IMG/VR virus record: IMGVR_UViG_3300033153_006492
Coordinates: 1 to 64,000 of that record
DNA: 64,000 nt
Reading direction: 5' to 3' (one strand)
Origin: a virus
Shown: positions 5 to 34,597 of the stretch, one piece after another
Layout: every line of letters begins with the position of its first letter
Position numbering within the stretch: position 1 is the first letter of the stretch
The notes under the pieces: generated by a model
The model's database searches: none
Seen by the model: only the letters and a program-made list of their open reading frames with translations
Told to the model about the DNA's origin: nothing
Made by a program: the position numbers and the translations under genes

Positions 5-76
5 GCTCCCGAAGCTTTAATGGTGAAGCAACGGACTTTTAATCCGTAGAATCTGGATCGTTACCAGACGGGAGTA
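5..76 (+). tRNA. tRNA-Lys(TTT)
   Basis: Cloverleaf; acceptor GCTCCCG/CGGGAGT, anticodon arm ACGGA-CTTTTAA-TCCGT; atypical T loop ATCGTTA. Confidence 0.85.
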
Positions 77-82
77 CAAAAT

Positions 83-155
83 GCTTCCCTATCCCAATGG
101 CAGAGGAGTCCGGCTTAGACCCGGTTCAGTCTCGGTTCAAATCCGAGGGGAAGTA
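83..155 (+). tRNA. tRNA-Leu(TAG), short variable loop
   Basis: Acceptor GCTTCCC/GGGAAGT, loop CTTAGAC, T loop TTCAAAT. Confidence 0.85.
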
Positions 156-166
156 CAAAAATTTAT

Positions 167-240
167 AGGTGATTAGTGTAGTTGGCCTACCACGTCGGTC
201 TCCAAAATCGAAAACACGGGTTCGAATCCTGTATCACCTG
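167..240 (+). tRNA. tRNA-Trp(CCA)
   Basis: Acceptor AGGTGAT/ATCACCT, loop CTCCAAA, G73. Confidence 0.9.
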
Positions 241-242
241 CT

Positions 243-306
243 AACGAGCCGAATGAATAGGATTATCCCTGAATAGATAAAACTCCTATTTGATTATTTG
301 TTCGTT
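243..306 (+). ncRNA. Y RNA-like gene 1 (Ro60-binding, minimal)
   Basis: AACGAGC[C]GAA / TTTGTTCGTT bulged-C helix; GCCGAATG motif; upper stem GAATAGGA/TCCTATTT followed by TTATC; U tail. Confidence 0.75.
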
Positions 307-315
307 TTTATAAAT

Positions 316-389
316 ACTCTCGTAGCTCAACTGGATAGAGTTCCTGATTACGAATCAGGCGGTTGAAGGTTCGAATCCTTTCGAGAGTA
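316..389 (+). tRNA. tRNA-Arg(ACG)
   Basis: Acceptor ACTCTCG/CGAGAGT, loop TTACGAA. Confidence 0.92.
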
Positions 390-390
390 C

Positions 391-478
391 AAATGAGCCG
401 AATGGTAATGGTTATCCCCTTACATAGAGATGGCTTACGGGTTGTGCCGGAGTTCCCATTATCAAAATTTGTTCATTT
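391..478 (+). ncRNA. Y RNA-like gene 2
   Basis: AAATGAGC[C]GAA / TTTGTTCATTT; upper stem GGTAATGG/CCATTATC; TTATC motif. Confidence 0.78.
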
Positions 479-483
479 ATTTT

Positions 484-556
484 GCGTCATTGGTGTTAGT
501 GGCTAGCATTTCAGACTTCCAATCTGACGGGGTCGGTTCGAATCCGACATGATGCT
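484..556 (+). tRNA. tRNA-Gly(TCC)
   Basis: Acceptor GCGTCAT/ATGATGC, loop CTTCCAA, U73. Confidence 0.92.
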
Positions 557-561
557 CAAAT

Positions 562-649
562 ACGAGCCGCTGAGTAAGATTATCGGTTAAAATTGGTTCG
601 AGTCCAATAGTCTCTACGGAGATTATGTTCTTACTCACTATTTGTTCGT
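562..649 (+). ncRNA. Y RNA-like gene 3 with T-arm module (YrlA-like)
   Basis: ACGAGC[C]G / TTTGTTCGT; upper stem TGAGTAAGA/TCTTACTCA; TTATC; internal T-arm ATTGG-TTCGAGT-CCAAT, then hairpin AGTCTC-TACG-GAGATT. Confidence 0.78.
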
Positions 650-677
650 TTTATTTAATTAAAATAAAGGAGAGGTT

Positions 678-842
678 ATGGAAACAAATCTTGTAGATTT
701 AGAACTTGAACTCAATATGGAAACAATGGCTTCATTAATACAAGCGTCAATTGATTCTGGAAAAGATGTTAATACATTAATTGTTGAAGCATTAGAATAC
801 TTTGTAGAGAACGAAAAAATTGAAAAAGATTCATCGAAGTAA
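678..842 (+). CDS. small hypothetical protein (54 aa), possibly ribbon-helix-helix
   Basis: AAGGAG RBS; METNLVDLELELNMETMASLIQ...; below ORF-track cutoff. Confidence 0.6.
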   Translation: METNLVDLELELNMETMASLIQASIDSGKDVNTLIVEALEYFVENEKIEKDSSK

Positions 843-846
843 ATAT

Positions 847-918
847 CCGCGTATAATTCAATGGTAGAAGCCCTGTCTTATATGCAGGTCGCTGAAGGTT
901 CGAATCCTTCTACGCGGA
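847..918 (+). tRNA. tRNA-Ile(TAT)
   Basis: Acceptor CCGCGTA/TACGCGG, arm CCTGT-CTTATAT-GCAGG, T loop TTCGAAT. Confidence 0.82.
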
Positions 919-920
919 CT

Positions 921-1114
921 TCTTCTGTCGTTTAATTTGTAAGACACGATGTTTTTAGATCGCCTTTGCTGTTTAATCAGCCGAATCTAAAGAAGAAATA
1001 AGTTAGGCTGTCGTGAAAACTTGAAAGTAATTCGGCCGGTTAAATGTTAATGAAATCAAGTGAATATCGCTGGCAAACCTTATGCGGAAGTTGGTTCAAA
1101 TCCAACTGGAAGGA
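921..1114 (+). ncRNA. tRNA-like RNA with ~140-nt insertion replacing the anticodon arm
   Basis: D-arm GTTT-AATTTGT-AAGAC, T-arm GTTGG-TTCAAAT-CCAAC, wobble-rich acceptor TCTTCTG/TGGAAGG; insert has CGATGTT/AATATCG helix. Confidence 0.6.
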
Positions 1115-1165
1115 CAAATTTCATCGACACGTTATTTTGATATGTAGATAACAGCGACACGTTAC

Positions 1166-1238
1166 GGGGCTATGGTAGTAATGGGAACTACGAGAGACTT
1201 GCAATCTTTAGTTCAGGGTTCGAATCCCTGTAGCTCCA
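1166..1238 (+). tRNA. tRNA-Ala(TGC)
   Basis: GGGGCTA/TAGCTCC with G3:U70, loop CTTGCAA. Confidence 0.92.
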
Positions 1239-1252
1239 CAATAAAATTAATT

Positions 1253-1329
1253 GGGGCACGGGACTGCAGTGGGGTGGTCACCTGACTTGCAATCAGGAAA
1301 GCAGCCGGGATCGTTCTTCGGGTGCTCCA
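1253..1329 (+). tRNA. tRNA-Ala(TGC), divergent copy
   Basis: GGGGCAC/GTGCTCC with G3:U70, loop CTTGCAA, atypical T loop. Confidence 0.8.
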
Positions 1330-1345
1330 CAATTAAGGAGGGTAC

Positions 1346-1558
1346 ATGGAATATAAATGGCGAGGCATGACATATCCAAAAATATTCACTAATAAATTAG
1401 TTCATTTTTTATGGAAACGATATTTGTGTCCACAAGAAAAACATCTGTTTGATGAAGTTGAAAGTGGAATAGGTGGTGGTGATATTGAACATTATCTTCA
1501 TTGTGATGCATGTGGTTTAATGGTTTACATTGATAAGGTGGAGGAAGACGACGAATGA
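1346..1558 (+). CDS. hypothetical protein (CxxC)
   Basis: AAGGAGG RBS; ORF track. Confidence 0.7.
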   Translation: MEYKWRGMTYPKIFTNKLVHFLWKRYLCPQEKHLFDEVESGIGGGDIEHYLHCDACGLMVYIDKVEEDDE

Positions 1559-1788
1559 GTATAAAAGTAAAAATTAGTATTACTGATATTAGTGTTACTG
1601 ATAATGAAGGTGATATAATAATTGAAGACTTAGAAATAGTAAATACTGGTCATGTGAAAAATGGAGAATTATTATATAGAATAAAGGGTGATAAATACAA
1701 TCACTTAGAAATATATCATAATAGAAAAGAATCTTGGAGTATTTTAATAGAAAAAGTATTAAACAAAATAAATGGCGATATAGCTTAA
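1555..1788 (+). CDS. hypothetical protein
   Basis: ATGA overlap with previous ORF; 3' end overlaps tRNA. Confidence 0.65.
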   Translation: MSIKVKISITDISVTDNEGDIIIEDLEIVNTGHVKNGELLYRIKGDKYNHLEIYHNRKESWSILIEKVLNKINGDIA

Positions 1789-1845
1789 CGGCAGAGTGAA
1801 CGGTTCATATCCGTTTAGGTATTGGTTCGAATCCAATTATCGCTA
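1774..1845 (+). tRNA. tRNA-CAT (Ile2 or elongator Met)
   Basis: GGCGATA/TATCGCT, loop TTCATAT. Confidence 0.85.
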
Positions 1846-1862
1846 CAAGAAAGGAAACCAGT

Positions 1863-2054
1863 ATGTTTTATTATGAGTTAGAATACTCAAATGGTGATAT
1901 TGAAAAAGTAAGTTATGAAACTGAAGAGGAAGCCAATTGGGCTTTTCATAATGCTGGTGATCATTTACTTGTAATTACACCAATTGATAAAGATGGAAAC
2001 GAAATTGATAAATATGGGAGTGTAGCTCAGAATAACGGTAGAGCTCAGGGGTGA
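1863..2054 (+). CDS. hypothetical acidic protein
   Basis: AAAGGA RBS; last ~13 codons run into tRNA-Phe. Confidence 0.6.
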   Translation: MFYYELEYSNGDIEKVSYETEEEANWAFHNAGDHLLVITPIDKDGNEIDKYGSVAQNNGRAQG

Positions 2055-2093
2055 AGTCCCTGGTAGTCGTCGGTTCGATCCCGACTACTCCCA
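2016..2093 (+). tRNA. tRNA-Phe(GAA)
   Basis: GGGAGTG/TACTCCC, arm CAGGG-GTGAAGT-CCCTG. Confidence 0.88.
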
Positions 2094-2104
2094 CAAAACA
2101 AACA

Positions 2105-2278
2105 AGCGATGTAGTGATACGGAAAGTATTCTCATTAATCTGTTGCAACGGATTATGAAAAGGATAATGTTTTGAGATAGCGTTGGGTCGACACGACAAA
2201 ATCATGTTTAATTATTCTGAATGCGATCACGCTCCCGTGCAAGGGAGAAATAGCAGGTTCGACTCCTGGCCGTCGCAA
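2105..2278 (+). ncRNA. tRNA-like RNA with ~107-nt insertion in the D loop
   Basis: Acceptor GCGATG/CGTCGC; D stem GTGAT(2114)/ATCAC(2226); arm CTCCC-GTGCAA-GGGAG (6-nt loop); T loop TTCGACT. Confidence 0.7.
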
Positions 2279-2284
2279 CTAAAT

Positions 2285-2395
2285 GGTGATATAGCTGTAA
2301 AGTCAGAGCTTTAAGCGGATGACGAAATAAGGATAACATCTTATTTTAGGAATAACAGCATGTTTATGTAGGTTCGAGTCCTTCTATCACCGCCA
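2285..2395 (+). ncRNA. tRNA-like RNA with expanded anticodon arm, encoded CCA
   Basis: Perfect acceptor GGTGATA/TATCACC-G-CCA, D arm, T loop TTCGAGT; ~60-nt middle region with AAATAAG/CTTATTT hairpin. Confidence 0.7.
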
Positions 2396-2397
2396 AT

Positions 2398-2470
2398 GGG
2401 ATTGTCGTCTAATAGAGAAGACGCCACCGATTGCAGGTGGAAACGAAGGATCATATCCCTTCCAATCTCA
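2398..2470 (+). tRNA. atypical tRNA (loop GATTGCA, nominal anticodon TTG)
   Basis: Cloverleaf GGGATTG/CAATCTC, CCACC-GATTGCA-GGTGG; lacks U33, non-canonical T loop. Confidence 0.6.
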
Positions 2471-2476
2471 CAAAAT

Positions 2477-2553
2477 GGAGCTGTGGTGTAACTGGTTAGC
2501 ACATCGCCCTGTCACGGCGAAGGCATTTGCGGGTTCGATCCCCGTCAGCTCCG
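2477..2553 (+). tRNA. tRNA-Asp(GTC)
   Basis: GGAGCTG/CAGCTCC-G, loop CTGTCAC. Confidence 0.92.
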
Positions 2554-2577
2554 CAAAATTTTTCTGGAGGAAACGTC

Positions 2578-2805
2578 ATGTCTGCGACAAAATTAATTGA
2601 AGTGAAAGTTTTAATGGAACAAGAAATGCTTGATAAATTAAATGGATTGGCGTCAATGATAGGAAAGAATCGTGATAAGGCTGTAACAGAAGCTATTAGT
2701 ATAGCACATGATTTAGTAGAAACGACGAAAAAGGAAAAGGGTAAAATTTTATTAGAATATCCTAACCATCGGATTGTAGAATTAACTTTAACTTTTTTGG
2801 AATAA
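2578..2805 (+). CDS. hypothetical protein, possibly ribbon-helix-helix DNA-binding
   Basis: GGAGG RBS before ATG 2578; beta-helix-helix pattern. Confidence 0.6.
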   Translation: MSATKLIEVKVLMEQEMLDKLNGLASMIGKNRDKAVTEAISIAHDLVETTKKEKGKILLEYPNHRIVELTLTFLE

Positions 2806-2808
2806 AAC

Positions 2809-2837
2809 TTGACAAGTAACATATTATTTCGTATCTT
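2809..2837 (+). promoter_or_regulatory. sigma70-type promoter
   Basis: TTGACA-17-TATCTT. Confidence 0.7.
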
Positions 2838-2875
2838 TCTGTGTTGGTGAAATTAAATAATAGAAGGAAAATGTT

Positions 2876-3031
2876 ATGGCTAATTATCGTAGTAAAAGTG
2901 GTTTTAATGGTAATCGTAGAAATAAAGGTACTAAAAAACTACAGTGGGTTATGAAGAATAAAAAGGACAAAGAACAACAAACGTATTATATAAAAAGACA
3001 AACAATTTCTGGTAATCGTGAGGAAATTTAA
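2876..3031 (+). CDS. small basic hypothetical protein (51 aa)
   Basis: AAGGA RBS; MANYRSKSGFNGNRRNKG... Confidence 0.5.
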   Translation: MANYRSKSGFNGNRRNKGTKKLQWVMKNKKDKEQQTYYIKRQTISGNREEI

Positions 3032-3331
3032 ATGATAAACTTAACAGAAAAAGAAAATAAGGTTTTGAAATATTTAGTTGCTGAAGGTCTTGAATGTATG
3101 GGCGGAAAGCAACCTACAGATTTAATTGAAGAAAATATGAGTTGGTTTGGAATTAAGGATATTATGTCTTTAGGTTTCAATCGACATCAAGCAGCTGGAC
3201 TAATGAGTAGCTTAAATGAAAAAGAAATGGTAATGGATACTGAAGGTGGAGTACCTGATTTAGATGGTAGAGTAACTTGGATTGTAACAGAAGATGGTAT
3301 TAATATCATTCAAAATTTGAAGGAAATGTAA
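3032..3331 (+). CDS. hypothetical protein, winged-helix-like
   Basis: LTEKENKVLKYL...GLMSSLNEKEMV...WIVTEDG pattern. Confidence 0.65.
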   Translation: MINLTEKENKVLKYLVAEGLECMGGKQPTDLIEENMSWFGIKDIMSLGFNRHQAAGLMSSLNEKEMVMDTEGGVPDLDGRVTWIVTEDGINIIQNLKEM

Positions 3332-3489
3332 ATGAGGTTATCTCAATATTTAGACGCAATGATAGTAAAAGAATTTCCTTCTTCGGCTGATTGGAAGACA
3401 AGGTATTCACATATTTCGAATACAGAAGAACTTAAATCCAATCGTCGTAAGTTAAAAATGTATAAAGATACGACTAAGAAAAAATAATT

Positions 3490-3574
3490 GGTACGGTGGG
3501 AGAGTGGTTAAATCCAGGGGTCTGTAAAACCTCCGCCTTTTCAGGCTACGTTGGTTCAAATCCAACCTGTACCA
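3490..3574 (+). tRNA. tRNA-Tyr(GTA)
   Basis: GGTACGG/CTGTACC, loop CTGTAAA, long variable arm. Confidence 0.92.
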
Positions 3575-3587
3575 CAAAGGTTCAAAT

Positions 3588-3659
3588 AAGGAAGTAGTAT
3601 AAGTAGTACGGTAGAAGCCGAGTCGATGACAGGTATAGGTTCAAATCCTATCTTCCTTA
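3588..3659 (+). ncRNA. tRNA-like RNA without a proper anticodon stem
   Basis: Perfect acceptor AAGGAAG/CTTCCTT and T-arm ATAGG-TTCAAAT-CCTAT; short D arm; unpaired anticodon region. Confidence 0.6.
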
Positions 3660-3670
3660 CTATAACAAAA

Positions 3671-3683
3671 TGTTCTTTGACAA
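3671..3683 (+). promoter_or_regulatory. boxA antitermination element
   Basis: TGTTCTTTGACAA inside tRNA cluster; second copy before tmRNA. Confidence 0.6.
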
Positions 3684-3696
3684 TATAAATTTTTAT

Positions 3697-3782
3697 GGGG
3701 TGATGACTGAATTGGCTAAGGTACGCGGCTGTAACCCGTTAGTCTCGCTGGACGAGTCAAGGTTCGAATCCTTGTCGCCCCA
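3697..3782 (+). tRNA. tRNA-Tyr(GTA), second copy
   Basis: GGGGTGA/TCGCCCC, loop CTGTAAC, long variable arm. Confidence 0.82.
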
Positions 3783-3862
3783 CTTTTTGTTTTCACTTGG
3801 GTTTGTTTAGAAAAATCAAACCTCTGCACATCGGTACTTATTAGAAATAATAAGGCCGATAT

Positions 3863-3934
3863 GGGGCTGTAGCTTAATGGTAGAGCGTCTCCCTGTCGAG
3901 GAGGAAGGTGTCGGTTCAAGTCCGATGGGTCTCG
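3863..3934 (+). tRNA. tRNA-Asp(GTC), second copy
   Basis: Loop CTGTCGA; weak acceptor stem; G73. Confidence 0.75.
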
Positions 3935-3961
3935 CAATATGTTGTAACTAAACAATTTTAT

Positions 3962-4040
3962 GGGTCTGTAGCAAATTACTGGCTTTGCAACTGGCTTTTA
4001 ACCAGTATAAATGTAGGTTCAATTCCTATCAGGCCCACCA
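3962..4040 (+). tRNA. tRNA-Lys(TTT), second copy
   Basis: GGGTCTG/CAGGCCC-A-CCA, loop CTTTTAA. Confidence 0.9.
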
Positions 4041-4059
4041 TAAAAAAAAAGAAGTATAT

Positions 4060-4130
4060 TGGCCTGTGGTGTAATGGAAGCACACCGCCCTTTGAAGGCG
4101 TTAGACATGGTTCGAGTCCATGCAGGCTAG
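4060..4130 (+). tRNA. tRNA-Gln(TTG)
   Basis: TGGCCTG/CAGGCTA-G, loop CTTTGAA. Confidence 0.9.
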
Positions 4131-4142
4131 CAAATGAAAAAT

Positions 4143-4217
4143 TAGCCGATGGTGAAGTGGTTTAACACGCCGGGCTCTGAACCCGGTATTTCGTTGGTTC
4201 GAATCCAACTCGGCTGG
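4143..4217 (+). tRNA. tRNA-Gln(CTG)
   Basis: TAGCCGA/TCGGCTG-G, loop CTCTGAA. Confidence 0.9.
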
Positions 4218-4219
4218 CT

Positions 4220-4359
4220 TTATGGTGGTGTAATATCATATGTAAGTAATTTGATGAATTCTTGAGGGAACGCTTGATGAAAAATGATGAAAACATATGA
4301 CAACAACACATTGCCCGTGAAGGGGTAACGCTACAAGTGTAAATCTTGTCCATAATCCA
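4220..4359 (+). ncRNA. tRNA-like RNA with ~74-nt D-loop insertion, encoded CCA
   Basis: TTATGG/CCATAA-T-CCA; D stem GTGT/ACAC enclosing TCATATG/CATATGA helix; arm TTGCC-CGTGAAGG-GGTAA; T-like arm ACAAG-TGTAAAT-CTTGT. Confidence 0.65.
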
Positions 4360-4362
4360 TAT

Positions 4363-4461
4363 AAGCGATATGTGCAGGTAGTTACCGTATGAATAACGTT
4401 TAACATATGGATAAATTTACTATACAAATAAACTGGCATCCCTTGATCAGGGTCGTCGCTT
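4363..4461 (+). ncRNA. unknown structured RNA
   Basis: Closing helix AAGCGAT/GTCGCTT, inner CCGTATG/CATATGG and CCCT/AGGG hairpins, U tail. Confidence 0.45.
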
Positions 4462-4486
4462 TTTACTTAAAATGAAAGGTTATGTT

Positions 4487-4654
4487 ATGATGGGTCACAA
4501 AGGTCACATAAAGACTATTGATGAAGATGATGCCTTAACTCGTGTATGTCGTTTGGATTTGTATAAACCAGGACAACGTAAGGCTTATAAACAGGCTTAT
4601 AATCGTCGTATTCGTCGACAAATGAAACAAAAAGATTATGACTCAATGTCGTAA
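4487..4654 (+). CDS. small basic hypothetical protein
   Basis: AAAGG RBS; C-terminal RKAYKQAYNRRIRR. Confidence 0.65.
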   Translation: MMGHKGHIKTIDEDDALTRVCRLDLYKPGQRKAYKQAYNRRIRRQMKQKDYDSMS

Positions 4655-4660
4655 TTAAAT

Positions 4661-4733
4661 TCCAGCATAGCTCAGTTGGTAGAGCAGGTGACTGTTAATC
4701 ACTTTGTCGTAGGTTCAAGTCCTACTGCTGGAG
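4661..4733 (+). tRNA. tRNA-Asn(GTT)
   Basis: TCCAGCA/TGCTGGA-G, loop CTGTTAA. Confidence 0.95.
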
Positions 4734-4745
4734 CAAACAACAAAT

Positions 4746-4936
4746 ACCGATATAGCTCAGTTGGTAGAGCGCCACCGCGAAAGGTGGATTCACGAAGTAT
4801 TATGATGTTCCTGCAGGGATTGATTGATGATTAGTGATAGAGGATTTAATCCTGAACACATAATAATTGTACAATAAAAATGTTAGTATGGAGATAAAAA
4901 TCTGAAGAGTCGTAGGTTCAAGTCCTGCTGTCGGTA
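4746..4936 (+). ncRNA. tRNA-like RNA with ~120-nt variable-arm insertion
   Basis: ACCGATA/TGTCGGT; canonical D arm GCTCAGTTGGTAGAGC; CCACC-GCGAAA-GGTGG (6-nt loop); canonical T arm. Confidence 0.72.
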
Positions 4937-5044
4937 CTATACAATGAAAGCATAATTATATATGACCCGATGCCTTATCCGGGTGGAAGATTAATCATTC
5001 TGAGTAAGATGCATACGAAAGGAAATGGTAGATAAGGTAGATAT

Positions 5045-5118
5045 TCATGGGTAGTATTAATGGTTAAAACGTCGGTCTGTTAAACCGAGAGATCTCAGTT
5101 CGAATCTGAGCCCATGAG
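5045..5118 (+). tRNA. tRNA-Asn(GTT), second copy
   Basis: TCATGGG/CCCATGA-G, loop CTGTTAA. Confidence 0.85.
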
Positions 5119-5130
5119 CAAAAAATAAAT

Positions 5131-5202
5131 GGTCGCGTAACTCAATGGTAGATTATCCGTCTGATACGCGGAAGGTTGTTGGTTCGACTCCAACCGCGAC
5201 TA
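5131..5202 (+). tRNA. tRNA-Ile(GAT)
   Basis: GGTCGCG/CGCGACT, loop CTGATAC. Confidence 0.9.
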
Positions 5203-5225
5203 CAAAAAGAAATATGTCAATATAT

Positions 5226-5300
5226 GGCGAGAAAAACGAATGGTGAGTGAGCGGTGTTACATACCGCGTGTCCTCGGTTCGAATCCGAGTCTCGCTACCA
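5226..5300 (+). tRNA. tRNA-Val(TAC)
   Basis: GGCGAGA/TCTCGCT-A-CCA, loop GTTACAT. Confidence 0.85.
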
Positions 5301-5319
5301 ATTTTTAAGGAGCATCTAT

Positions 5320-5523
5320 ATGGGTGAATTATATAATCGCATATTTGTAGATAAAGATAATGGAATAAGTTCTATGTCACAAAGAGATAGAGATGTAACA
5401 AAAGCCTTTTCTTTAGTTTCACATGGAATTTTACGATTAAAGGGTTACATAATAACTAAAGATGAATTCCAAGATTTTGAATTTTGGTTTAATACATTAA
5501 AAAACCAAGTTAGTAAGGAGTAA
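5320..5523 (+). CDS. hypothetical protein
   Basis: AAGGAG RBS before ATG 5320. Confidence 0.65.
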   Translation: MGELYNRIFVDKDNGISSMSQRDRDVTKAFSLVSHGILRLKGYIITKDEFQDFEFWFNTLKNQVSKE

Positions 5524-5582
5524 CTATTTATGGGTATGGTAGAATATTTCCCTTAGTGTTAGTTTAACTAAGGAGAATCAAA

Positions 5583-5807
5583 ATGAAAGAAACATTAAAA
5601 ACTACCACTAATAATAGTGTATTCAAAAAACTTCGTACTCGACAAGGCAAATATATTTGTCTTATTTGTTTTAAGAGAAGTAATCGTGGTGATATATATG
5701 CAGGTTGTGCATATATGTTTAGACCTGACAGAACACGGAAAAGTTGGAAACATTATCGCAAAAATCAATATAAAACTGTGGAGAATACATATGGCGAAGA
5801 AACTTAA
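5583..5807 (+). CDS. small basic Cys-containing protein
   Basis: AAGGAG RBS; CxxC...C, RKSWKHYRKNQYK. Confidence 0.7.
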   Translation: MKETLKTTTNNSVFKKLRTRQGKYICLICFKRSNRGDIYAGCAYMFRPDRTRKSWKHYRKNQYKTVENTYGEET

Positions 5808-5937
5808 TGGATTTGTATGTGATGTATGTAGAAAATTTTTTAGAAGTGATGAACCAATTACTGGACAAGGAAGAAAACGCAATCTTCATTTTTGTACATT
5901 AAAATGTAAGGCGAAGTGGGTAAAGAAAACTGTTTGA
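5791..5937 (+). CDS. small zinc-finger protein (TRASH/MYM-like)
   Basis: GGAG RBS; CDVC...HFCTLKC. Confidence 0.65.
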   Translation: MAKKLNGFVCDVCRKFFRSDEPITGQGRKRNLHFCTLKCKAKWVKKTV

Positions 5938-5980
5938 AATATAAGGAACATATTTCAGTAATTAGCGTTATATATAATAT

Positions 5981-6053
5981 GGTGCGGTAACTCAATTGGT
6001 AGAGTGTCGGTGTGAAGTACCGATGGTAGTCAGTTCGATTCTGACCCGTACCA
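5981..6053 (+). tRNA. tRNA-Phe(GAA), second copy
   Basis: GGTGCGG/CCGTACC, loop GTGAAGT. Confidence 0.88.
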
Positions 6054-6054
6054 C

Positions 6055-6177
6055 AAAAATCGTTGACCGGATAGTAGAGCGAATCGTATGTCGGCTATCT
6101 ACCGTCCATAGTTCAAGAGAAAAGCGTATCTTTTCAATTCCTTCAAGAGTAAGACTACGTGAGAAGGAACGATTTTT
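6055..6177 (+). ncRNA. unknown structured RNA
   Basis: 10-bp closing helix AAAAATCGTT/AACGATTTTT with three internal hairpins; directly after tRNA-Phe. Confidence 0.45.
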
Positions 6178-6199
6178 ATTTTTAATATAAGGAGTTATA

Positions 6200-6463
6200 A
6201 TGAATCCTGATAGATCATATTTTGGAAAAATGTTTAAGCCTGAAGTATTTAATCTTACACCTGATAATTGTGATAACGATGAAGAATTTGTTGAACTTGT
6301 TACAGAGGAAACTTGGAATTTAGATGAGTGGACTCCTGAAGGTATAATGATGTTAAAACATTTTGTTTTTAAAACAGTAACAAAAGATGTACCGGAAAAA
6401 CATGATATAGATATTGATTATTTACTGATTTTAATTAAAGAACATTGGGATAAAATTAAATGA
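6200..6463 (+). CDS. hypothetical protein
   Basis: AAGGAG RBS; ORF track. Confidence 0.7.
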   Translation: MNPDRSYFGKMFKPEVFNLTPDNCDNDEEFVELVTEETWNLDEWTPEGIMMLKHFVFKTVTKDVPEKHDIDIDYLLILIKEHWDKIK

Positions 6464-6473
6464 TGGAGGTTAC

Positions 6474-6701
6474 ATGACTGGATTAACTGATTTTTTAAAA
6501 GATTTGAAAGGAAGTAAAATAGTTGGGCTTTTATTTGGTAGTGGTATTTTAGTATTTTTGTTTTTTGCGTTAGCTATCATATTATCATTATTTAAAGGTG
6601 GATTTTTTATTACACTCGCAGTTTTTATGATTATATCTGGTTGTGTATCACTTATATTCTTTTTTATTGCAATTGGAATGATATACGACGAAATGAATTG
6701 A
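6474..6701 (+). CDS. hypothetical membrane protein
   Basis: GGAGG RBS; two hydrophobic segments. Confidence 0.7.
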   Translation: MTGLTDFLKDLKGSKIVGLLFGSGILVFLFFALAIILSLFKGGFFITLAVFMIISGCVSLIFFFIAIGMIYDEMN

Positions 6702-6702
6702 T

Positions 6703-7032
6703 ATGAACACAATTACAGTAAATGGTCGTCGTTATTCTGGAGATACAATAGTGGTTGGTTCCGGTGAAATTCGTATTGATGGAAACACCATTAAAACTCC
6801 AGACGAAAAAGAAATTAACATTCATGTTGATGGTAATATGAAAAAATTAGATATTATGTCGTGTAACAATCTCACTATAAAGGGTGATGTTGATAATGTG
6901 GAATCTCAAAGTGGTGATATAAATGTTATAGGAAATGTAACTGGTGATGTTGAAACTATGTCTGGTGATGTTCATGTCTCCGGAGGTATAGGTGGTGGTG
7001 TTGAAACTATGACTGGTAACATTACACGTTAA
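6703..7032 (+). CDS. beta-solenoid repeat protein (xTxSGDV repeats)
   Basis: ESQSGDI/ETMSGDV/ETMTGNI repeats. Confidence 0.65.
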   Translation: MNTITVNGRRYSGDTIVVGSGEIRIDGNTIKTPDEKEINIHVDGNMKKLDIMSCNNLTIKGDVDNVESQSGDINVIGNVTGDVETMSGDVHVSGGIGGGVETMTGNITR

Positions 7033-7039
7033 AAAAATT

Positions 7040-7115
7040 GGGAGTATAGCAAATTATTGGTCTTGCAGTAGGCTCTTAACCTTCATAAATGTCGGTTCGA
7101 TTCCGACTGCTCCCA
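7040..7115 (+). tRNA. tRNA-Lys(CTT)
   Basis: GGGAGTA/TGCTCCC, loop CTCTTAA. Confidence 0.88.
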
Positions 7116-7225
7116 CAATCCTGTGGTGGATCGTTACCACCGTCCAGTTGTCAATCCTCGAGGTAGACTTTGGTGTGAAGCTGACAAAGAATATGGTATT
7201 CGCAGGTACTTTTTGTAAAATAAAT

Positions 7226-7282: not shown

Positions 7283-8137
7283 ATGGAAGTTCAAAGTTTA
7301 TCAATTTTAATTCCCGCAGGATGCCCAAACAGGTGTCCTTTCTGTGTTTCTCACATGAATAAAGAAAACAAAAAATTTAGAACAAATGTAAATATTGATT
7401 TGGATTCTGTCAAACGAAGAATGGAATTTGCTCGCGACAATGGAACAAATACTTTAATGATTACATCAACTGGTGAAGCATTAGAAAATATGGATTATGT
7501 GATTCATATTCTCGATATAAATAAAAGATTGCCGTCTCCTTTTAAATGGATTGAATTACAGACAAGTGGTGTTGGTTTAATGGATTGTATAAATGAATAT
7601 GGTTATAGTATGAATAAGATTAATACGATTAGCATCAGTGTTGTCGACATATTCAGTTCTGAATATAATTCTAAATGGATGAAAATGCCTGCTGGTCGTG
7701 AAGTTGATTTGGATGAATTGGTTAAGTTTTTGAAAGAACGAAATTTTAATGTTCGTATATCAATTAATTTAACTAACATATATAATAATATTGCTGTTGA
7801 AGATCTGTATCAACGACTGGGAGAATTGGATGTTGACCAAGTAACATTTCGGAAATTATATTTGAATGGTAATGGAAGCAAACAAGATAACTGGATTGAA
7901 AAAAATAAACTTGATTATGAAACTTTCAATGATATAATTGAATATGTAGAAGATAATGGAAACGCTCTTGAATTATTACCATTTGGCGCAATGAAATATT
8001 CGTTGAATGGAATATCAACAGTAATTGATGACGACTGTATGAGTAAAGAAGTTAGAAATGTGTTGAAGTATTTAATTATCCGTGAGAATGGAAAATTATA
8101 TTCTCGTTGGGATGATAAAGGTTCTTTAATTTTTTAG
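7283..8137 (+). CDS. radical SAM protein
   Basis: CPNRCPFC (CxxxCxxC) and TGE motif; ends in TAG. Confidence 0.85.
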   Translation: MEVQSLSILIPAGCPNRCPFCVSHMNKENKKFRTNVNIDLDSVKRRMEFARDNGTNTLMITSTGEALENMDYVIHILDINKRLPSPFKWIELQTSGVGLMDCINEYGYSMNKINTISISVVDIFSSEYNSKWMKMPAGREVDLDELVKFLKERNFNVRISINLTNIYNNIAVEDLYQRLGELDVDQVTFRKLYLNGNGSKQDNWIEKNKLDYETFNDIIEYVEDNGNALELLPFGAMKYSLNGISTVIDDDCMSKEVRNVLKYLIIRENGKLYSRWDDKGSLIF

Positions 8138-8149
8138 AAAGGTTATGTT

Positions 8150-8353
8150 ATGAACGAATATAAAATAATTACTGCAAGTTCTGCAGGTGAATTAACAAAA
8201 AAAGTAAATAAAATCATGATGGAAGAACATTTTACGCCGAATGGTTCACATCATGTAATTGAAATACATCGTCAAAATCGTTATAGGGGAACTGAACTTA
8301 TTGATACGGTTATTACACGAGAGTATTCACAAACAATGAAATTGAAAATTTAA
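8150..8353 (+). CDS. small hypothetical protein (DUF1737-like)
   Basis: YKIITA...LTKKVN...YSQTM pattern. Confidence 0.6.
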   Translation: MNEYKIITASSAGELTKKVNKIMMEEHFTPNGSHHVIEIHRQNRYRGTELIDTVITREYSQTMKLKI

Positions 8354-12053: not shown

Positions 12054-12058
12054 TCGTT

Positions 12059-12070
12059 TATATATTTATA
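12059..12070 (+). promoter_or_regulatory. candidate phage late promoter
   Basis: TATATATTTATA, recurring in intergenic gaps. Confidence 0.55.
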
Positions 12071-12100
12071 AGTGTAATCTAAAAAAGAAAGGAAACCATT

Positions 12101-12163
12101 ATGTTTGAATATTGGTTAGGAAATTACGGTTAGGGTTTTCCGTAGATAAATAAACCTCCATAA
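12101..12163 (+). CDS. leader peptide MFEYWLGNYG*GFP*INKPP with two in-frame TAG codons
   Basis: AAAGGA RBS, ATG 12101, TAG at 12131 and 12143, CCT-CCA-TAA at 12155-12163. Confidence 0.65.
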
Positions 12164-12219
12164 TTTTTCTTTATTCTTAAATGTTATTAACTAATCGAAA
12201 TAAGAATAAAGGAGAATTA
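12161..12219 (+). promoter_or_regulatory. RBS-sequestering hairpin (translational attenuator)
   Basis: 19-bp stem 12161-12179/12201-12219 (17 Watson-Crick + 2 GU) covering the AAGGAG of ORF 12222. Confidence 0.75.
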
Positions 12220-12221
12220 AA

Positions 12222-12608
12222 ATGATGAATCATAAAGAATTTTATCAATCGAAAAAGTATTATCTTAAAGGTTTAGCACAACAACTTCATGATCTTAGAC
12301 TTGAATTCAAAGAATCACAGCGTAATAATCGAGGTGAAGGTGATTATAGATTATGGATGAACATTCAAAAAATAAGGTATGAATATCGGCATCAACATAT
12401 AGCGAATACATTAGCACGTAAACTTAACGCTAACACTCATACTGAAAATGGAGTTTTAACTGCTGAAGCTATTGAATGGTATAACAGAATTGAAGCAAAG
12501 GTAAAGGATGGAAATGAAGCGAATTTTGACTACATTGGACGACTTTCTGAAGAGTATCCCTCTTTACAGGAGGTATATGATGAAACGTCTGTATGTGTTG
12601 ACGCGTAA
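12222..12608 (+). CDS. hypothetical protein upstream of pth2
   Basis: AAGGAG RBS; YEYRHQHIA motif. Confidence 0.75.
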   Translation: MMNHKEFYQSKKYYLKGLAQQLHDLRLEFKESQRNNRGEGDYRLWMNIQKIRYEYRHQHIANTLARKLNANTHTENGVLTAEAIEWYNRIEAKVKDGNEANFDYIGRLSEEYPSLQEVYDETSVCVDA

Positions 12609-12939
12609 TGACTTAGGTGCGGTTTATCAATCAGTTCAAGGAGCACATGCAGTTGCACAATTTATGTTAGATTATCCTGATAATGAATGGAAGAATGGTT
12701 ATCTTATTTTTCTTGCCGTGGAAAATGAAAAAGAATTGTATGATTGGAAAGAACAAGTTGTATTTAAGAATTCAACAAAATCAATTCTGAAACAAACTCC
12801 CGTGTCAGGCTTTTTTGAACCTGATTTAGATAATCAATTAACTGCAGTTGCCGTGTATTCTACTGGTTCTAAATTCAGTAAGTTACCTATTGTTACTGCA
12901 CCAATTATGGATGATGCTGACAATGATGGTGCGGTGTGA
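12577..12939 (+). CDS. pth2: peptidyl-tRNA hydrolase 2-like protein
   Basis: LYVLTRNDL...QGAHA...IFLAV...FFEPDLDNQLTAVA; GGAGG RBS before ATG 12577. Confidence 0.8.
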   Translation: MMKRLYVLTRNDLGAVYQSVQGAHAVAQFMLDYPDNEWKNGYLIFLAVENEKELYDWKEQVVFKNSTKSILKQTPVSGFFEPDLDNQLTAVAVYSTGSKFSKLPIVTAPIMDDADNDGAV

Positions 12940-12946
12940 TATTAAT

Positions 12947-12972
12947 ATGGCGGCGGTAATGTCGCCATTTTT
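12947..12972 (+). terminator. intrinsic terminator-like hairpin between pth2 and suppressor tRNA
   Basis: ATGGCGGC-GGTAAT-GTCGCCAT plus T run. Confidence 0.6.
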
Positions 12973-12974
12973 AT

Positions 12975-13049
12975 CTGCTTGTAGCTCAGCCCGGTAGAGC
13001 GGAGAACTCTAAATTCTCGCCAGCGTCGGTTCGAATCCGACCAAGCGGA
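12975..13049 (+). tRNA. amber suppressor tRNA (CTA)
   Basis: Canonical cloverleaf: CTGCTTG/CAAGCGG-A, D arm GCTCAGCCCGGTAGAGC, GAGAA-CTCTAAA-TTCTC, GTCGG-TTCGAAT-CCGAC. Confidence 0.92.
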
Positions 13050-13074
13050 CGACAAGGATAGGAGAATAAATACA

Positions 13075-13854: not shown

Positions 13855-14052
13855 ATGATTAATAAAATGACGCTTCATACTGGAGAAAGTGATAATATTA
13901 TTTACATTGATTGGGATGGAAAACAGAAAAAACAAAAAGATATGATGCGTGTTGAAATAAAAGTACATAAAAATCATACTGTTAGAGTACTTGAAATTAA
14001 CATAAATGATGAAAATATAGTAACATTATTAGATGAGGAAGAAGATGCCTAA
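13855..14052 (+). CDS. hypothetical protein
   Basis: ORF track, RBS. Confidence 0.55.
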   Translation: MINKMTLHTGESDNIIYIDWDGKQKKQKDMMRVEIKVHKNHTVRVLEININDENIVTLLDEEEDA

Positions 14053-14680
14053 AAAAATACAAAGATTAAATATAATTGATTTGGAGTCGACATGCTGGCC
14101 TGATCAAATTGCTCCAAATGGAGCACCTCAAAGATTCGCGTCTGAAATAATTGAAATAGGAATAGCTCAAGTAGATGTAAAGTCGCTTGAAATTTTAGAA
14201 AAGAAAAGTTATTTGGTTAAGCCAGTAACATATCCTAAATTGAGTAAGTATTGTACTGATTTAACAAGTATAACCAATGAAATGTTAGATGAAGAAGGAA
14301 CGACGTTAGCCTATGCTATTGCTCGAATGTTATCTGAATTTAAGACGATGAAGTATGAATGGGCTTCGTGGGGAGATTATGACAGAAGCCAATTCCAACG
14401 AGAATGTGAGCATAAGAATATACAATATCCTTTTCACAAGACACATCTTAACTTGAAATATATATTATCTACGTTAATAGGAAGCAAAGTACAACGGAAC
14501 ATGGATGGTATAATGGAATTCTTAGATATGAAATTTGAAGGAAGCGCTCACAGAGGTGTTGATGATGCTTATAATACAGCGAAGATATATATTAAGATTA
14601 TGGCTGCTATTGGTGAAACAGTTAATTCGAGAGTACTCTGTCAACTTTGGGGAGACGACTTCCACAAGGAAAATAGTTAG
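14045..14680 (+). CDS. DEDDh 3'-5' exonuclease (ERI1/KapD-like)
   Basis: IIDLESTC, EIIEIG, WGDYD, HRGVDDAYN. Confidence 0.9.
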   Translation: MPKKIQRLNIIDLESTCWPDQIAPNGAPQRFASEIIEIGIAQVDVKSLEILEKKSYLVKPVTYPKLSKYCTDLTSITNEMLDEEGTTLAYAIARMLSEFKTMKYEWASWGDYDRSQFQRECEHKNIQYPFHKTHLNLKYILSTLIGSKVQRNMDGIMEFLDMKFEGSAHRGVDDAYNTAKIYIKIMAAIGETVNSRVLCQLWGDDFHKENS

Positions 14681-34036: not shown

Positions 34037-34267
34037 ATGTATAAAGCAGGAGAGTTTGATTTTGAATTCAAGTTACCATTTAAATCTAATAATTTCAATG
34101 TTGTAATTTATAAATGGAAAATAATAGACACAAAAAGATATGGTCGTAAAGTAGTTGTACAAGGCTATGGAAATGATGGCGAATTGTATGATGGACAAGC
34201 GAGCATAACTGCTAAGGGTGTCATAAAGAATGTTCATGTAGATATTAACAGTGGGAGGTGGGAATAG
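34037..34267 (+). CDS. hypothetical protein
   Basis: ORF track; TAG directly followed by in-frame ATG. Confidence 0.6.
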   Translation: MYKAGEFDFEFKLPFKSNNFNVVIYKWKIIDTKRYGRKVVVQGYGNDGELYDGQASITAKGVIKNVHVDINSGRWE

Positions 34268-34597
34268 ATGCTTGTTCAAGAATGTTACAGAATAGTTGAA
34301 GTAAAGAATGGTGATTATTATAGTTTATTTCATGGAACGAAAAGGTCACGAAAATTAGAACGTGGTAAATGGTTATCAGCCGACAAGAAAATTGTAAATG
34401 ATGGTTCGTGTGCTACGAAGTATGAATCTGGTTGGCATGTCTTAAAATCTAAAGAAGAAACAGAACAATTTTTAGAAAAAATGTTTCGTGTAAAAAAGGA
34501 TCGAAGAGTTATACCTGTTTTAGTCATGGGGCTTCGCCCAAAATCACACAGTCGACATGAAGTATATTTAGCAGACGAAATGTTTATATTTGAATGA
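34268..34597 (+). CDS. hypothetical protein
   Basis: GGAGG RBS; SLFHG...YESGWH. Confidence 0.7.
   Translation: MLVQECYRIVEVKNGDYYSLFHGTKRSRKLERGKWLSADKKIVNDGSCATKYESGWHVLKSKEETEQFLEKMFRVKKDRRVIPVLVMGLRPKSHSRHEVYLADEMFIFE

Follow-up and report, generated by a model that had tools for sequence, protein, structure and literature searches.

A putative read-through-gated leader attenuator linked to suppressor tRNA genes in phages

The leader peptides of ermC (ErmCL), cat and cmlA are encoded by short upstream open reading frames (uORFs) with their own ribosome-binding sites, in which a ribosome that pauses at a defined codon masks one arm, the 5′ one, of a hairpin, so that the Shine-Dalgarno (SD) sequence of the next gene becomes accessible. 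We describe a locus with a similar layout in a 64,000-nucleotide (nt) stretch of viral DNA, hereafter the window, which is positions 1 to 64,000 of IMG/VR record IMGVR_UViG_3300033153_006492. A leader interrupted by two in-frame TAG codons is followed there by a hairpin that hides the SD of a gene we call orfA, by a gene for a protein resembling peptidyl-tRNA hydrolase 2 (the Pth2-like gene) and by a transfer RNA (tRNA) gene with anticodon CUA. The input differs from that of ErmCL, cat and cmlA, which respond to an antibiotic in the exit tunnel, whereas the input here would be read-through of a stop codon, that is, suppressor tRNA activity; the pause does not appear to be conditional on a ligand, and access to the pause site is instead gated by in-frame stops. 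Comparison of sequences suggests that the locus is probably a read-through-gated translational attenuator that senses stop-codon suppression, and it indicates the same design in dozens of distant phages.

Several other described systems share parts of this layout. In prfB, the gene for release factor 2 (RF2), competition at an early in-frame stop (UGA) also sets the expression of a translation factor. That regulation depends on a +1 frameshift inside prfB and responds to the release factor, whereas here there is no frameshift, the leader and hairpin are separate from the regulated gene, and the competitor is a suppressor tRNA. TnaC of the tna operon is alike in that it, too, stalls at Pro-stop. 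SecM, ApdA, ApdP and ApcA have a proline-rich, arrest-type end located 5′ of a hairpin that masks the start of the next gene; these peptides are described as monitors of protein export that precede Sec or YidC genes, and none is reported to be interrupted by stops (PMC7897499, PMC10987492, PMC10951233, PMC12992588). The leader in the window ends in NKPP-stop, unlike the RAPP, RGPP and RAGP peptides, and does not contain R-A/G-P-P. Leaders of its relatives end in RGPP, RRPP, RGSP, RASP or IRGPD, like RAPP-type peptides, with RGPP and RRPP present in some relatives only.

A functional counterpart is an engineered transcriptional switch for unnatural amino acids (Uaa), in which a UAG in a leader peptide makes a suppressor tRNA necessary for expression of the downstream genes (PMC6412442 section 6, Fig. 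8). It was built artificially and works through Rho-dependent termination of transcription, whereas the module described here is natural, widespread and apparently acts on translation initiation through an anti-SD hairpin. Recoded phages (crAss-like, Lak and others; bioRxiv 10.1101/2021.08.26.457843; PMC9523058) likewise carry suppressor tRNAs, and many relatives of the module lie on large gut-phage contigs; they differ from the contig studied here, whose genes contain no in-frame TAG, so that the leader is the sole conserved target of the tRNA seen here. The text of the phage recoding preprint contains none of the terms 'leader', 'hydrolase' or 'attenuat', and full-text literature searches, whose coverage leaves out most subscription journals, returned no description of the module. 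We would class it, from its sequence features, as leader-peptide attenuation with a new input, its mechanics being those known from the erm/cat and SecM/RAPP leaders.

Leader, hairpin and suppressor tRNA across phage loci

An earlier note, made from the window's letters alone, had read at this locus a motif TATATATTTATA, a uORF with its own ribosome-binding site, two in-frame TAGs and a Pro-Pro-TAA end, a 19-bp hairpin hiding the AAGGAG of the open reading frame (ORF) that starts at 12222, an overlap of this ORF with a Pth2-like gene, and a canonical tRNA with anticodon CTA after that gene. All of these are recovered here (Table 1). The motif stands at 12059-12070, inside a 14-mer, TTTATATATTTATA; the leader reads as described, with its TAGs 28 and 16 nt short of the stem, the distances given in the note; the hairpin is found in both the minimum free energy (MFE) and centroid folds; the gene overlap measures 29 nt; and ARAGORN identifies the tRNA. 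The locus thus has, in common with known attenuators, a short upstream ORF with its own ribosome-binding site, for which relatives carry AAGGAG or AGGAG at the SD position (AAGGAG in the nearest fetched relative, L081). The 5′ arm of the hairpin begins with the leader's TAA and the 3′ arm contains AAGGAG (12209-12214), 7 nt before the ATG at 12222; folded alone, the hairpin has an energy of -16.4 kcal/mol with 13/13 SD-zone bases paired. It was rejected as an intrinsic terminator because no U-run follows it on the 3′ side. A TAG leader with a Pro-Pro-stop has just one true instance on the contig.

Using an alignment of the Pth2-like protein alone, we collected 160 loci from IMG/VR and public metagenomes, which reduce to a non-redundant set of 88. 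A suppressor tRNA lies within 3 kb of the gene in 136 of the 160; these tRNAs are mostly CUA, with a few UCA or UUA, and usually lie 20-650 nt downstream on the same strand, in keeping with the association with CUA tRNAs that the note had proposed as a check. To locate leaders we scanned the 600 nt ahead of the gene pair for an ATG followed by 1-11 sense codons and a stop X, after which the frame, reading through X alone, runs on to Pro-Pro-stop, with all other fetched sequence on both strands (873,818 nt) as the control. This strict scan recovered a leader in 51/88 loci with X = TAG in 51/51, and the control yielded one match with TAG, five with TAA and two with TGA. Within the subfamily of the window, every locus carries, at a single site, the pattern SD-ATG-(1-10 codons)-TAG-GGN-TTY-NNN-TAG-(5-7 codons)-CCN-CCN-TAA/TGA.

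Codon statistics were taken over 38 distinct leaders with 50 TAGs, 26 leaders having one TAG and 12 having two. Both proline codons vary in their third base (CCT 22, CCA 11, CCG 4 and CCC 1 for the first; CCA 12, CCT 12, CCG 11 and CCC 3 for the second), while the residue at position -3 is most often lysine (K 14, V 7, I 5, R 3). The terminal stop is TAA in 33 leaders, TGA in 5 and TAG in none; the base 3′ of TAG is always a purine (G 36, A 14); and the distance from the last TAG to the terminal stop is 5-15 sense codons, never fewer than 5. The frame stays in phase through the internal stop to the Pro-Pro-stop, with no sign of a +1 shift. Because the third bases of the proline codons vary, the terminal stop is never TAG, and the spacing and purine are kept, the aligned sequences indicate a peptide read in frame through TAG rather than a nucleotide motif. 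The in-frame TAGs and Pro-Pro-stop proposed from a single sequence are therefore conserved across divergent loci, with substitutions of the coding type.

Conservation is most pronounced at the leader itself when the window is compared with L081: the leader is identical at 63/63 nt and the segment from hairpin to ATG at 98.5%, with orfA at 75%, the Pth2-like gene at 81%, the tRNA at 82% and the flanks at 53-60%. A search of sequencing runs recovered small shares only, and the DNA contigs from salt-lake metagenomes belong to an L081-like relative, and a 97%-identical relative, P0001, sits on a 63.6-kb contig.

The pairing between leader end and downstream start is likewise maintained while its sequence changes. 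In 39 loci we computed folds for the segment that begins with the last Pro codon and ends at the orfA ATG. Six or more of the 13 SD-zone bases are paired with the initial 30 nt, at the leader end, in the MFE structures of 31 loci; on average 8.8 SD-zone bases are paired, against 3.6 after shuffling of the leader-end segment. In a swap control, cognate duplexes had a mean of -14.4 kcal/mol and non-cognate duplexes -6.9 kcal/mol, with the cognate partner the best of 39 in 20 loci and among the top three in 29/39, and none of 10,000 permutations reached the observed cognate mean; the window's hairpin ranks first of the 39. Compensatory changes in the 5′ and 3′ arms are exemplified by AAUU/AAUU in the window and AGUU/AACU in L002, and by UGAUGAUU/AAUCAUUA in L096 and GAUAC/GUAUC in L022. 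In loci without a visible SD (for example L003, L012 and L137), it is the downstream AUG that the helix joins to the last Pro codon and the stop. RNAalifold predicted no consensus from a MAFFT alignment of 11 hairpin regions, as differing loop lengths misalign the arms, and per-locus folds and the swap control were used for this reason. The co-variation that the earlier note had named as a check on the hairpin is thus observed, and the locus has a hairpin that pairs the downstream SD or AUG with the leader's proposed pause site, as attenuators do.

A further link between leader and tRNA is the agreement of the internal stop with the anticodon. In a relaxed scan, which accepted either Pro-Pro-stop or [RK][AGS]1-2P as the end, we compared the nearest suppressor anticodon with the first stop of the leader. 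Where the nearest anticodon is CUA, the first stop is TAG in 59 loci and no leader was found in 7; where it is UCA, the stop is TGA in 3/3 loci; and where it is UUA, the stop is TAA in 4/4. Where the fetched piece contains no tRNA, the first stop is TAG in 10 loci and no leader was found in 5. There were 0 mismatches between anticodon and stop, and the control of 874 kb gave 18 TAA, 18 TGA and 8 TAG matches. The UCA clade has the leader MKR[I/L]-TGA-TRN[K/R]GPDN in 3 loci with synonymous ACT/ACA, AAC/AAT and CCA/CCG codons, and the UUA clade has M[K/E]LQHW-TAA-VT...RG(S)P, with its arginine encoded by AGA in one branch and CGT in the other. Public records of the Prevotella phages Lak-A1 and Lak-B7 hold the UUA/TAA form.

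In these Lak records (L164, MK250026.1, Lak-B7; L165, MK250016.1, Lak-A1), which are unannotated, the order is tRNA(UUA), TAA leader, orfA-like gene and Pth2-like gene. Other leaders depart from the common form. In L056, L060, L069, L076 and L072 the leader ends in ...LIRGPD rather than Pro-Pro-stop, with two TAGs (one in L072), an ending that recalls the SecM-type IRAGP arrest motif, and in L072 and L076 the frame enters the beginning of the orfA-like gene with no stop in between. In four gut-phage loci (L006, L109, L126 and L129) such a run-on frame into the orfA-like gene appears shifted by one base just after the ATG (ATGGCAACAATTTAAACAAG...) relative to L004, leaving a TAA in the ATG frame; candidate causes are an indel, misassembly and programmed shifting.

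Table 1. Positions of the elements of the locus in the window
Feature	Position	Strand	Remarks
Promoter-like 14-mer TTTATATATTTATA	12057..12070	+	Abuts the stop of the upstream gene; putative promoter
Leader Shine-Dalgarno-like GAAAGGA	12087..12093	+	Core AGGA at 12090-12093, 7 nt before ATG 12101
Leader ORF, 20 codons	12101..12163	+	MFEYWLGNYG-TAG(12131-12133)-GFP-TAG(12143-12145)-INKPP-TAA(12161-12163); Pro-Pro at 12155-12160
Hairpin	12161..12219	+	Arms 12161-12179 / 12201-12219; 19 pairs (17 Watson-Crick, 2 G-U)
orfA, 128 aa	12222..12608	+	Always directly upstream of the Pth2-like gene across loci, mostly overlapping it
Pth2-like gene, 119 aa	12580..12939	+	Small protein with predicted peptidyl-tRNA-hydrolase-2 fold
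G+C-rich hairpin, then TTTTTAT	12947..12974 (hairpin 12947-12968)	+	Between the Pth2-like stop and the tRNA; putative terminator-like element
Suppressor tRNA, anticodon CUA	12975..13050	+	76-nt cloverleaf (ARAGORN)

Proposed gating and competing explanations

From this arrangement we infer that the leader is translated, that ribosomes stall at its Pro-Pro-stop, that the stall switches the operon between an OFF and an ON state, and that orfA and the Pth2-like protein may have a role tied to suppression. A transcript starting at the promoter-like motif would carry the leader, the hairpin, orfA, the Pth2-like gene and probably the tRNA, and ribosomes would initiate on the leader. Without suppression they would terminate at UAG codon 11 or 15, with the leading edge short of the hairpin and the orfA SD still paired (OFF). 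Were tRNA(CUA) to outcompete release factor 1 (RF1) at both UAGs, the ribosome would arrive at Pro-Pro-UAA, a slow-termination context, with its mRNA channel over approximately 12161-12172, the partners of AAGGAG; the SD would then be freed, and orfA and the overlapping Pth2-like gene would be translated (ON).

The geometry of the locus is consistent with this scheme. Counting from the first base of its P-site codon, a ribosome melts mRNA out to about +11 to +15. When UAG-15 occupies the A site, this puts the edge around 12152-12154, and the helix, which begins at 12161, is not reached; when UAA occupies it, the P-site codon begins at 12158 and positions +9 to +14 fall on 12166-12171, the partners of the SD at 12209-12214. 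Since the edge reaches the helix only from the UAA, only a ribosome that has passed both UAGs would free the SD, and slow termination after Pro-Pro would hold it in place. The minimum of 5 codons after the last TAG fits the need for a ribosome waiting at UAG to stay off the helix. With two UAGs the output would scale roughly as the square of suppression efficiency, and a transcriptional layer might come on top through Rho-dependent polarity that follows early termination. Hayes, Bose and Sauer are reported to have found in 2002 that a C-terminal proline leads to SsrA tagging at termination (reference 2 of PMC12856214). Published work describes termination as slowest at poly-Pro C-termini (PMC6412442 section 5.6), an effect of the base 3′ of UAG on RF1 efficiency (PMC6412442), and a higher switch gain with multiple UAGs (PMC6412442 section 5.3).

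The earlier note's interpretation of the locus as a switch gated by read-through is supported comparatively, by the leader, the hairpin, the tRNA linkage and the match of stop and anticodon. Several points weigh against it. The loci are related by descent, so the counts above are not independent events; the matches for UCA and UUA come from one clade each and therefore amount to two independent confirmations, not seven. The relaxed arrest motif was chosen after looking at the data, and 7/66 loci whose nearest suppressor is CUA have no recognised leader. In the window itself the leader's own SD is weak (AGGA), and the hairpin is A+U-rich, the 156-nt region having a fold z-score of only -2.0 with 5/200 shuffles folding as well; the excess over chance comes from the comparative results, not from the local fold z-score. 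Genes of the contig use TAG as an ordinary stop 13 times, which leaves the phage's need for a suppressor unexplained, and the contig is an incomplete 78.7-kb genome without a terminal repeat. The one RNA sequencing run found gave no contig at the locus.

Among alternative explanations, the one that survives best retains read-through as a requirement and dispenses with a prolonged stall. Output would then come from termination-reinitiation coupling, in which a ribosome terminating at the UAA opens the helix in passing and it, or its 30S subunit, restarts at the adjacent AUG. In support of such coupling, the last Pro codon and the stop are, in many loci, base-paired directly with the AUG downstream (CCAUAA/UUAUGG, for example in L003, L012, L019, L137 and L151), and in these loci, which have no visible SD, the stop is thereby brought next to the start. 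A pause under selection is nevertheless suggested by the Pro-Pro that almost always precedes the stop and by the RGP, RGSP and IRGPD ends of leaders that have no immediate stop, some of which have no stop at all after the motif, and we consider coupling without a stall quite unlikely.

It is very improbable that the TAGs are ordinary stops to which the tRNA is irrelevant, the leader being a minigene or a protein- or RNA-binding site and the hairpin a constitutive damper or mRNA stabiliser. The nucleotides TAGGGNTTYNNNTAG are strongly conserved in the subfamily of the window and could form such a binding site, but outside the subfamily only the frame, the stop, the following purine and the Pro-Pro-stop are kept, and the third positions of the Gly, Phe and Pro codons vary. 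The internal stop also switches to TGA or TAA along with the anticodon, and the final stop is never TAG.

Least probable of all is that the leader reports the availability of RF1, depleted or inhibited in the infected host, with the tRNA merely supplying decoding, a reading that the earlier note had also raised: read-through is set by the ratio of tRNA(CUA) to RF1, so that both are in principle sensed, but the tight linkage of the suppressor tRNA and the match between stop and anticodon point to the tRNA as the variable partner, TGA leaders would need RF2 and TAA leaders both factors, a less economical design around a factor, and no release factor gene or release factor inhibitor was identified here.

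Downstream proteins, tRNA and the surrounding contig

The protein encoded by the Pth2-like gene has, according to structure prediction and profile comparison, a Pth2 fold. Alignment confirms its start, MKRLYVLTRNDLG, with 47 homologues. The family profile matches the Pth2 structure 2zv3 (E=4.7e-4), and an AlphaFold 2 (AF2) model with a predicted local distance difference test (pLDDT) score of 90 reaches a Foldseek probability of 1.0 only for Pth2/Bit1 structures, with template modelling (TM) scores of 0.63-0.68 and 2zv3, 1wn2, 1q7s, 1xty and 3erj as top matches; the fold is assigned because of these two results. The protein also matches phrog_3668, annotated 'hydrolase'. The earlier note's label of a Pth2-like gene thus stands at the level of fold and fails at the level of the family model, as no Pfam model, PF01981 included, matches the protein even at E<=10; across 49 homologues, PF01981 is carried only by the weakest or most distant. 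VQGAHA of the protein aligns with AQGGHA of 2zv3, and its invariant E80 with the Asp of RDAG, residues that may belong to the catalytic set of Pth2. Where 2zv3 has its GKGK loop the family alignment shows a gap, and the protein appears to lack that loop.

The product of orfA is predicted to be a long helical hairpin with short helices (AF2 pLDDT 85). Searches with tblastn placed homologues upstream of the Pth2-like gene in 22 loci, and in more distant loci its position is taken by a gene alike in size and motif; the conserved motif is YE[FY]RHxHIAYC (alignment A2). No match was found in Pfam, PHROGs, PDB folds (Foldseek) or the ESM Atlas, nor by tblastn among GenBank phages. IMG/VR scans with a single orfA or Pth2-like sequence returned no relatives, while alignment-based scans succeeded, and a predicted complex of the two proteins scored under the threshold. 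Three roles are plausible for the pair: recycling of peptidyl-tRNA dropped off at stop read-through, capping of the suppressor by hydrolysis of its acylated form, or help against RF1. That the switch induces Pth2 to recycle peptidyl-tRNA, as the earlier note had it, is something we, too, infer rather than observe. Among cultured phages, the Stenotrophomonas phages Moby and RAS14 and the Xanthomonas phage XacN1 have a Pth2-like match in another context or in fused form; no leader or adjacent suppressor tRNA was seen in these three, and a cultured carrier of the module was not identified.

In the tRNA the acceptor stem measures 7 bp, position 73 is A, the variable loop is short and CCA is not encoded; the tRNAs of relatives keep the stems through compensatory changes. 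Among 483 other phage tRNAs, its best non-suppressor match agrees at 55/76 positions, and an amino-acid identity could not be assigned from similarity to this set. The hairpin just before it has 9 pairs, 5 of them G-C, in a terminator scan, and recurs in nine relatives (L081, L082, L084, L085, L086, L090, L093, L094 and L001); in the window and these relatives its structure is kept, its sequence is not, and a U-run mostly follows. In L082, L084, L090 and L001 it straddles the stop codon of the Pth2-like gene. This hairpin might couple transcription of the tRNA to translation of the operon, or might stabilise the mRNA 3′ end after tRNA processing. On the former possibility, ribosomes finishing the Pth2-like gene would disrupt the terminator-like hairpin and RNA polymerase would continue into the suppressor tRNA gene, and, if the hairpin terminates, operon translation would raise tRNA synthesis in a positive feedback. 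The outputs, orfA and the Pth2-like protein, would then target the suppressor tRNA, dropped-off peptidyl-tRNA or the competition with release factors, setting or capping the decoding state. The module as a whole would be a self-reinforcing code switch, in which the leader senses suppression of one stop, the tRNA induces itself and the proteins tune decoding; we regard this extension of the attenuator as speculative and rather unlikely.

At the other end of the locus, TTTATATATTTATA is probably a phage-specific promoter element. Four exact copies lie in the window, all on the + strand (12057, 24485, 27205 and 46043), and allowing up to 2 mismatches gives 16 matches against 7.5 expected, a number that 0/100 shuffles reach. 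The copy at 12057 stands just 5′ of the leader's ribosome-binding site, and a similar motif occupies the same position in L081, L094, L082 and L084.

The contig is 78.7 kb long, and the window, its first 64 kb, has a G+C content of 33%, long ORFs that are all on the + strand, and 23 tRNA genes (ARAGORN). No terminal repeat was found on the contig, and the genome is therefore probably incomplete. Twenty of the tRNA genes are packed into the first 7.1 kb (5-7116), with those for Tyr, Asp, Asn, Gln, Lys and Ile duplicated; the contig start falls inside this array, so the genome is cut here. A near-identity DNA search among GenBank phages gave no match. About 1 kb downstream of the locus, at 14033-14680, lies a gene for a DEDD-type exonuclease (phrog_192, DNA polymerase exonuclease subunit, E=4.5e-11), which is syntenic in 11 related loci.

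Genome-wide recoding of TAG was considered and rejected for the 78.7 kb. Genetic code 11 yields long ORFs along the whole contig rather than many TAG-interrupted genes, no gene contains a supported in-frame TAG, and the stop of the 106 genes on the + strand is TAA in 71 cases, TGA in 22 and TAG in 13, so that the code is the standard one and TAG an ordinary stop. For two genes with TAG-A at the end, an extension in the same frame is possible, by 71 codons for the gene at 7283-8137 (7283-8350), which encodes a radical-SAM protein, and by 109 codons for that at 34037-34267 (34037-34594); both extensions run into or through the next ORF. No Pfam or PHROGs match spans either TAG-A junction, and fusion or read-through products are possible though unsupported.

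Implications for stop-codon decoding in phages

Suppressor tRNAs are widespread in phages, including phages with the standard code, and the literature searched holds no description of their regulation and targets in the latter. The module offers a conserved cis target for such tRNAs together with a plausible control circuit, and it points to a Pth2-fold protein and the helical orfA product as factors tied specifically to suppression. As a part for synthetic biology it may provide a compact, evolution-tuned amber-, opal- or ochre-responsive switch, of which engineered versions exist (PMC6412442). If the self-reinforcing switch, which we hold to be the less likely extension, were true, phages would possess in it a naturally occurring bistable control over the state of their genetic code. 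If the attenuator itself is as we propose, it would be a natural sensor of stop-codon decoding, an input not described for leader-peptide attenuators, and would show how recoded phages such as the crAss-like and Lak phages time or stabilise their code switch.

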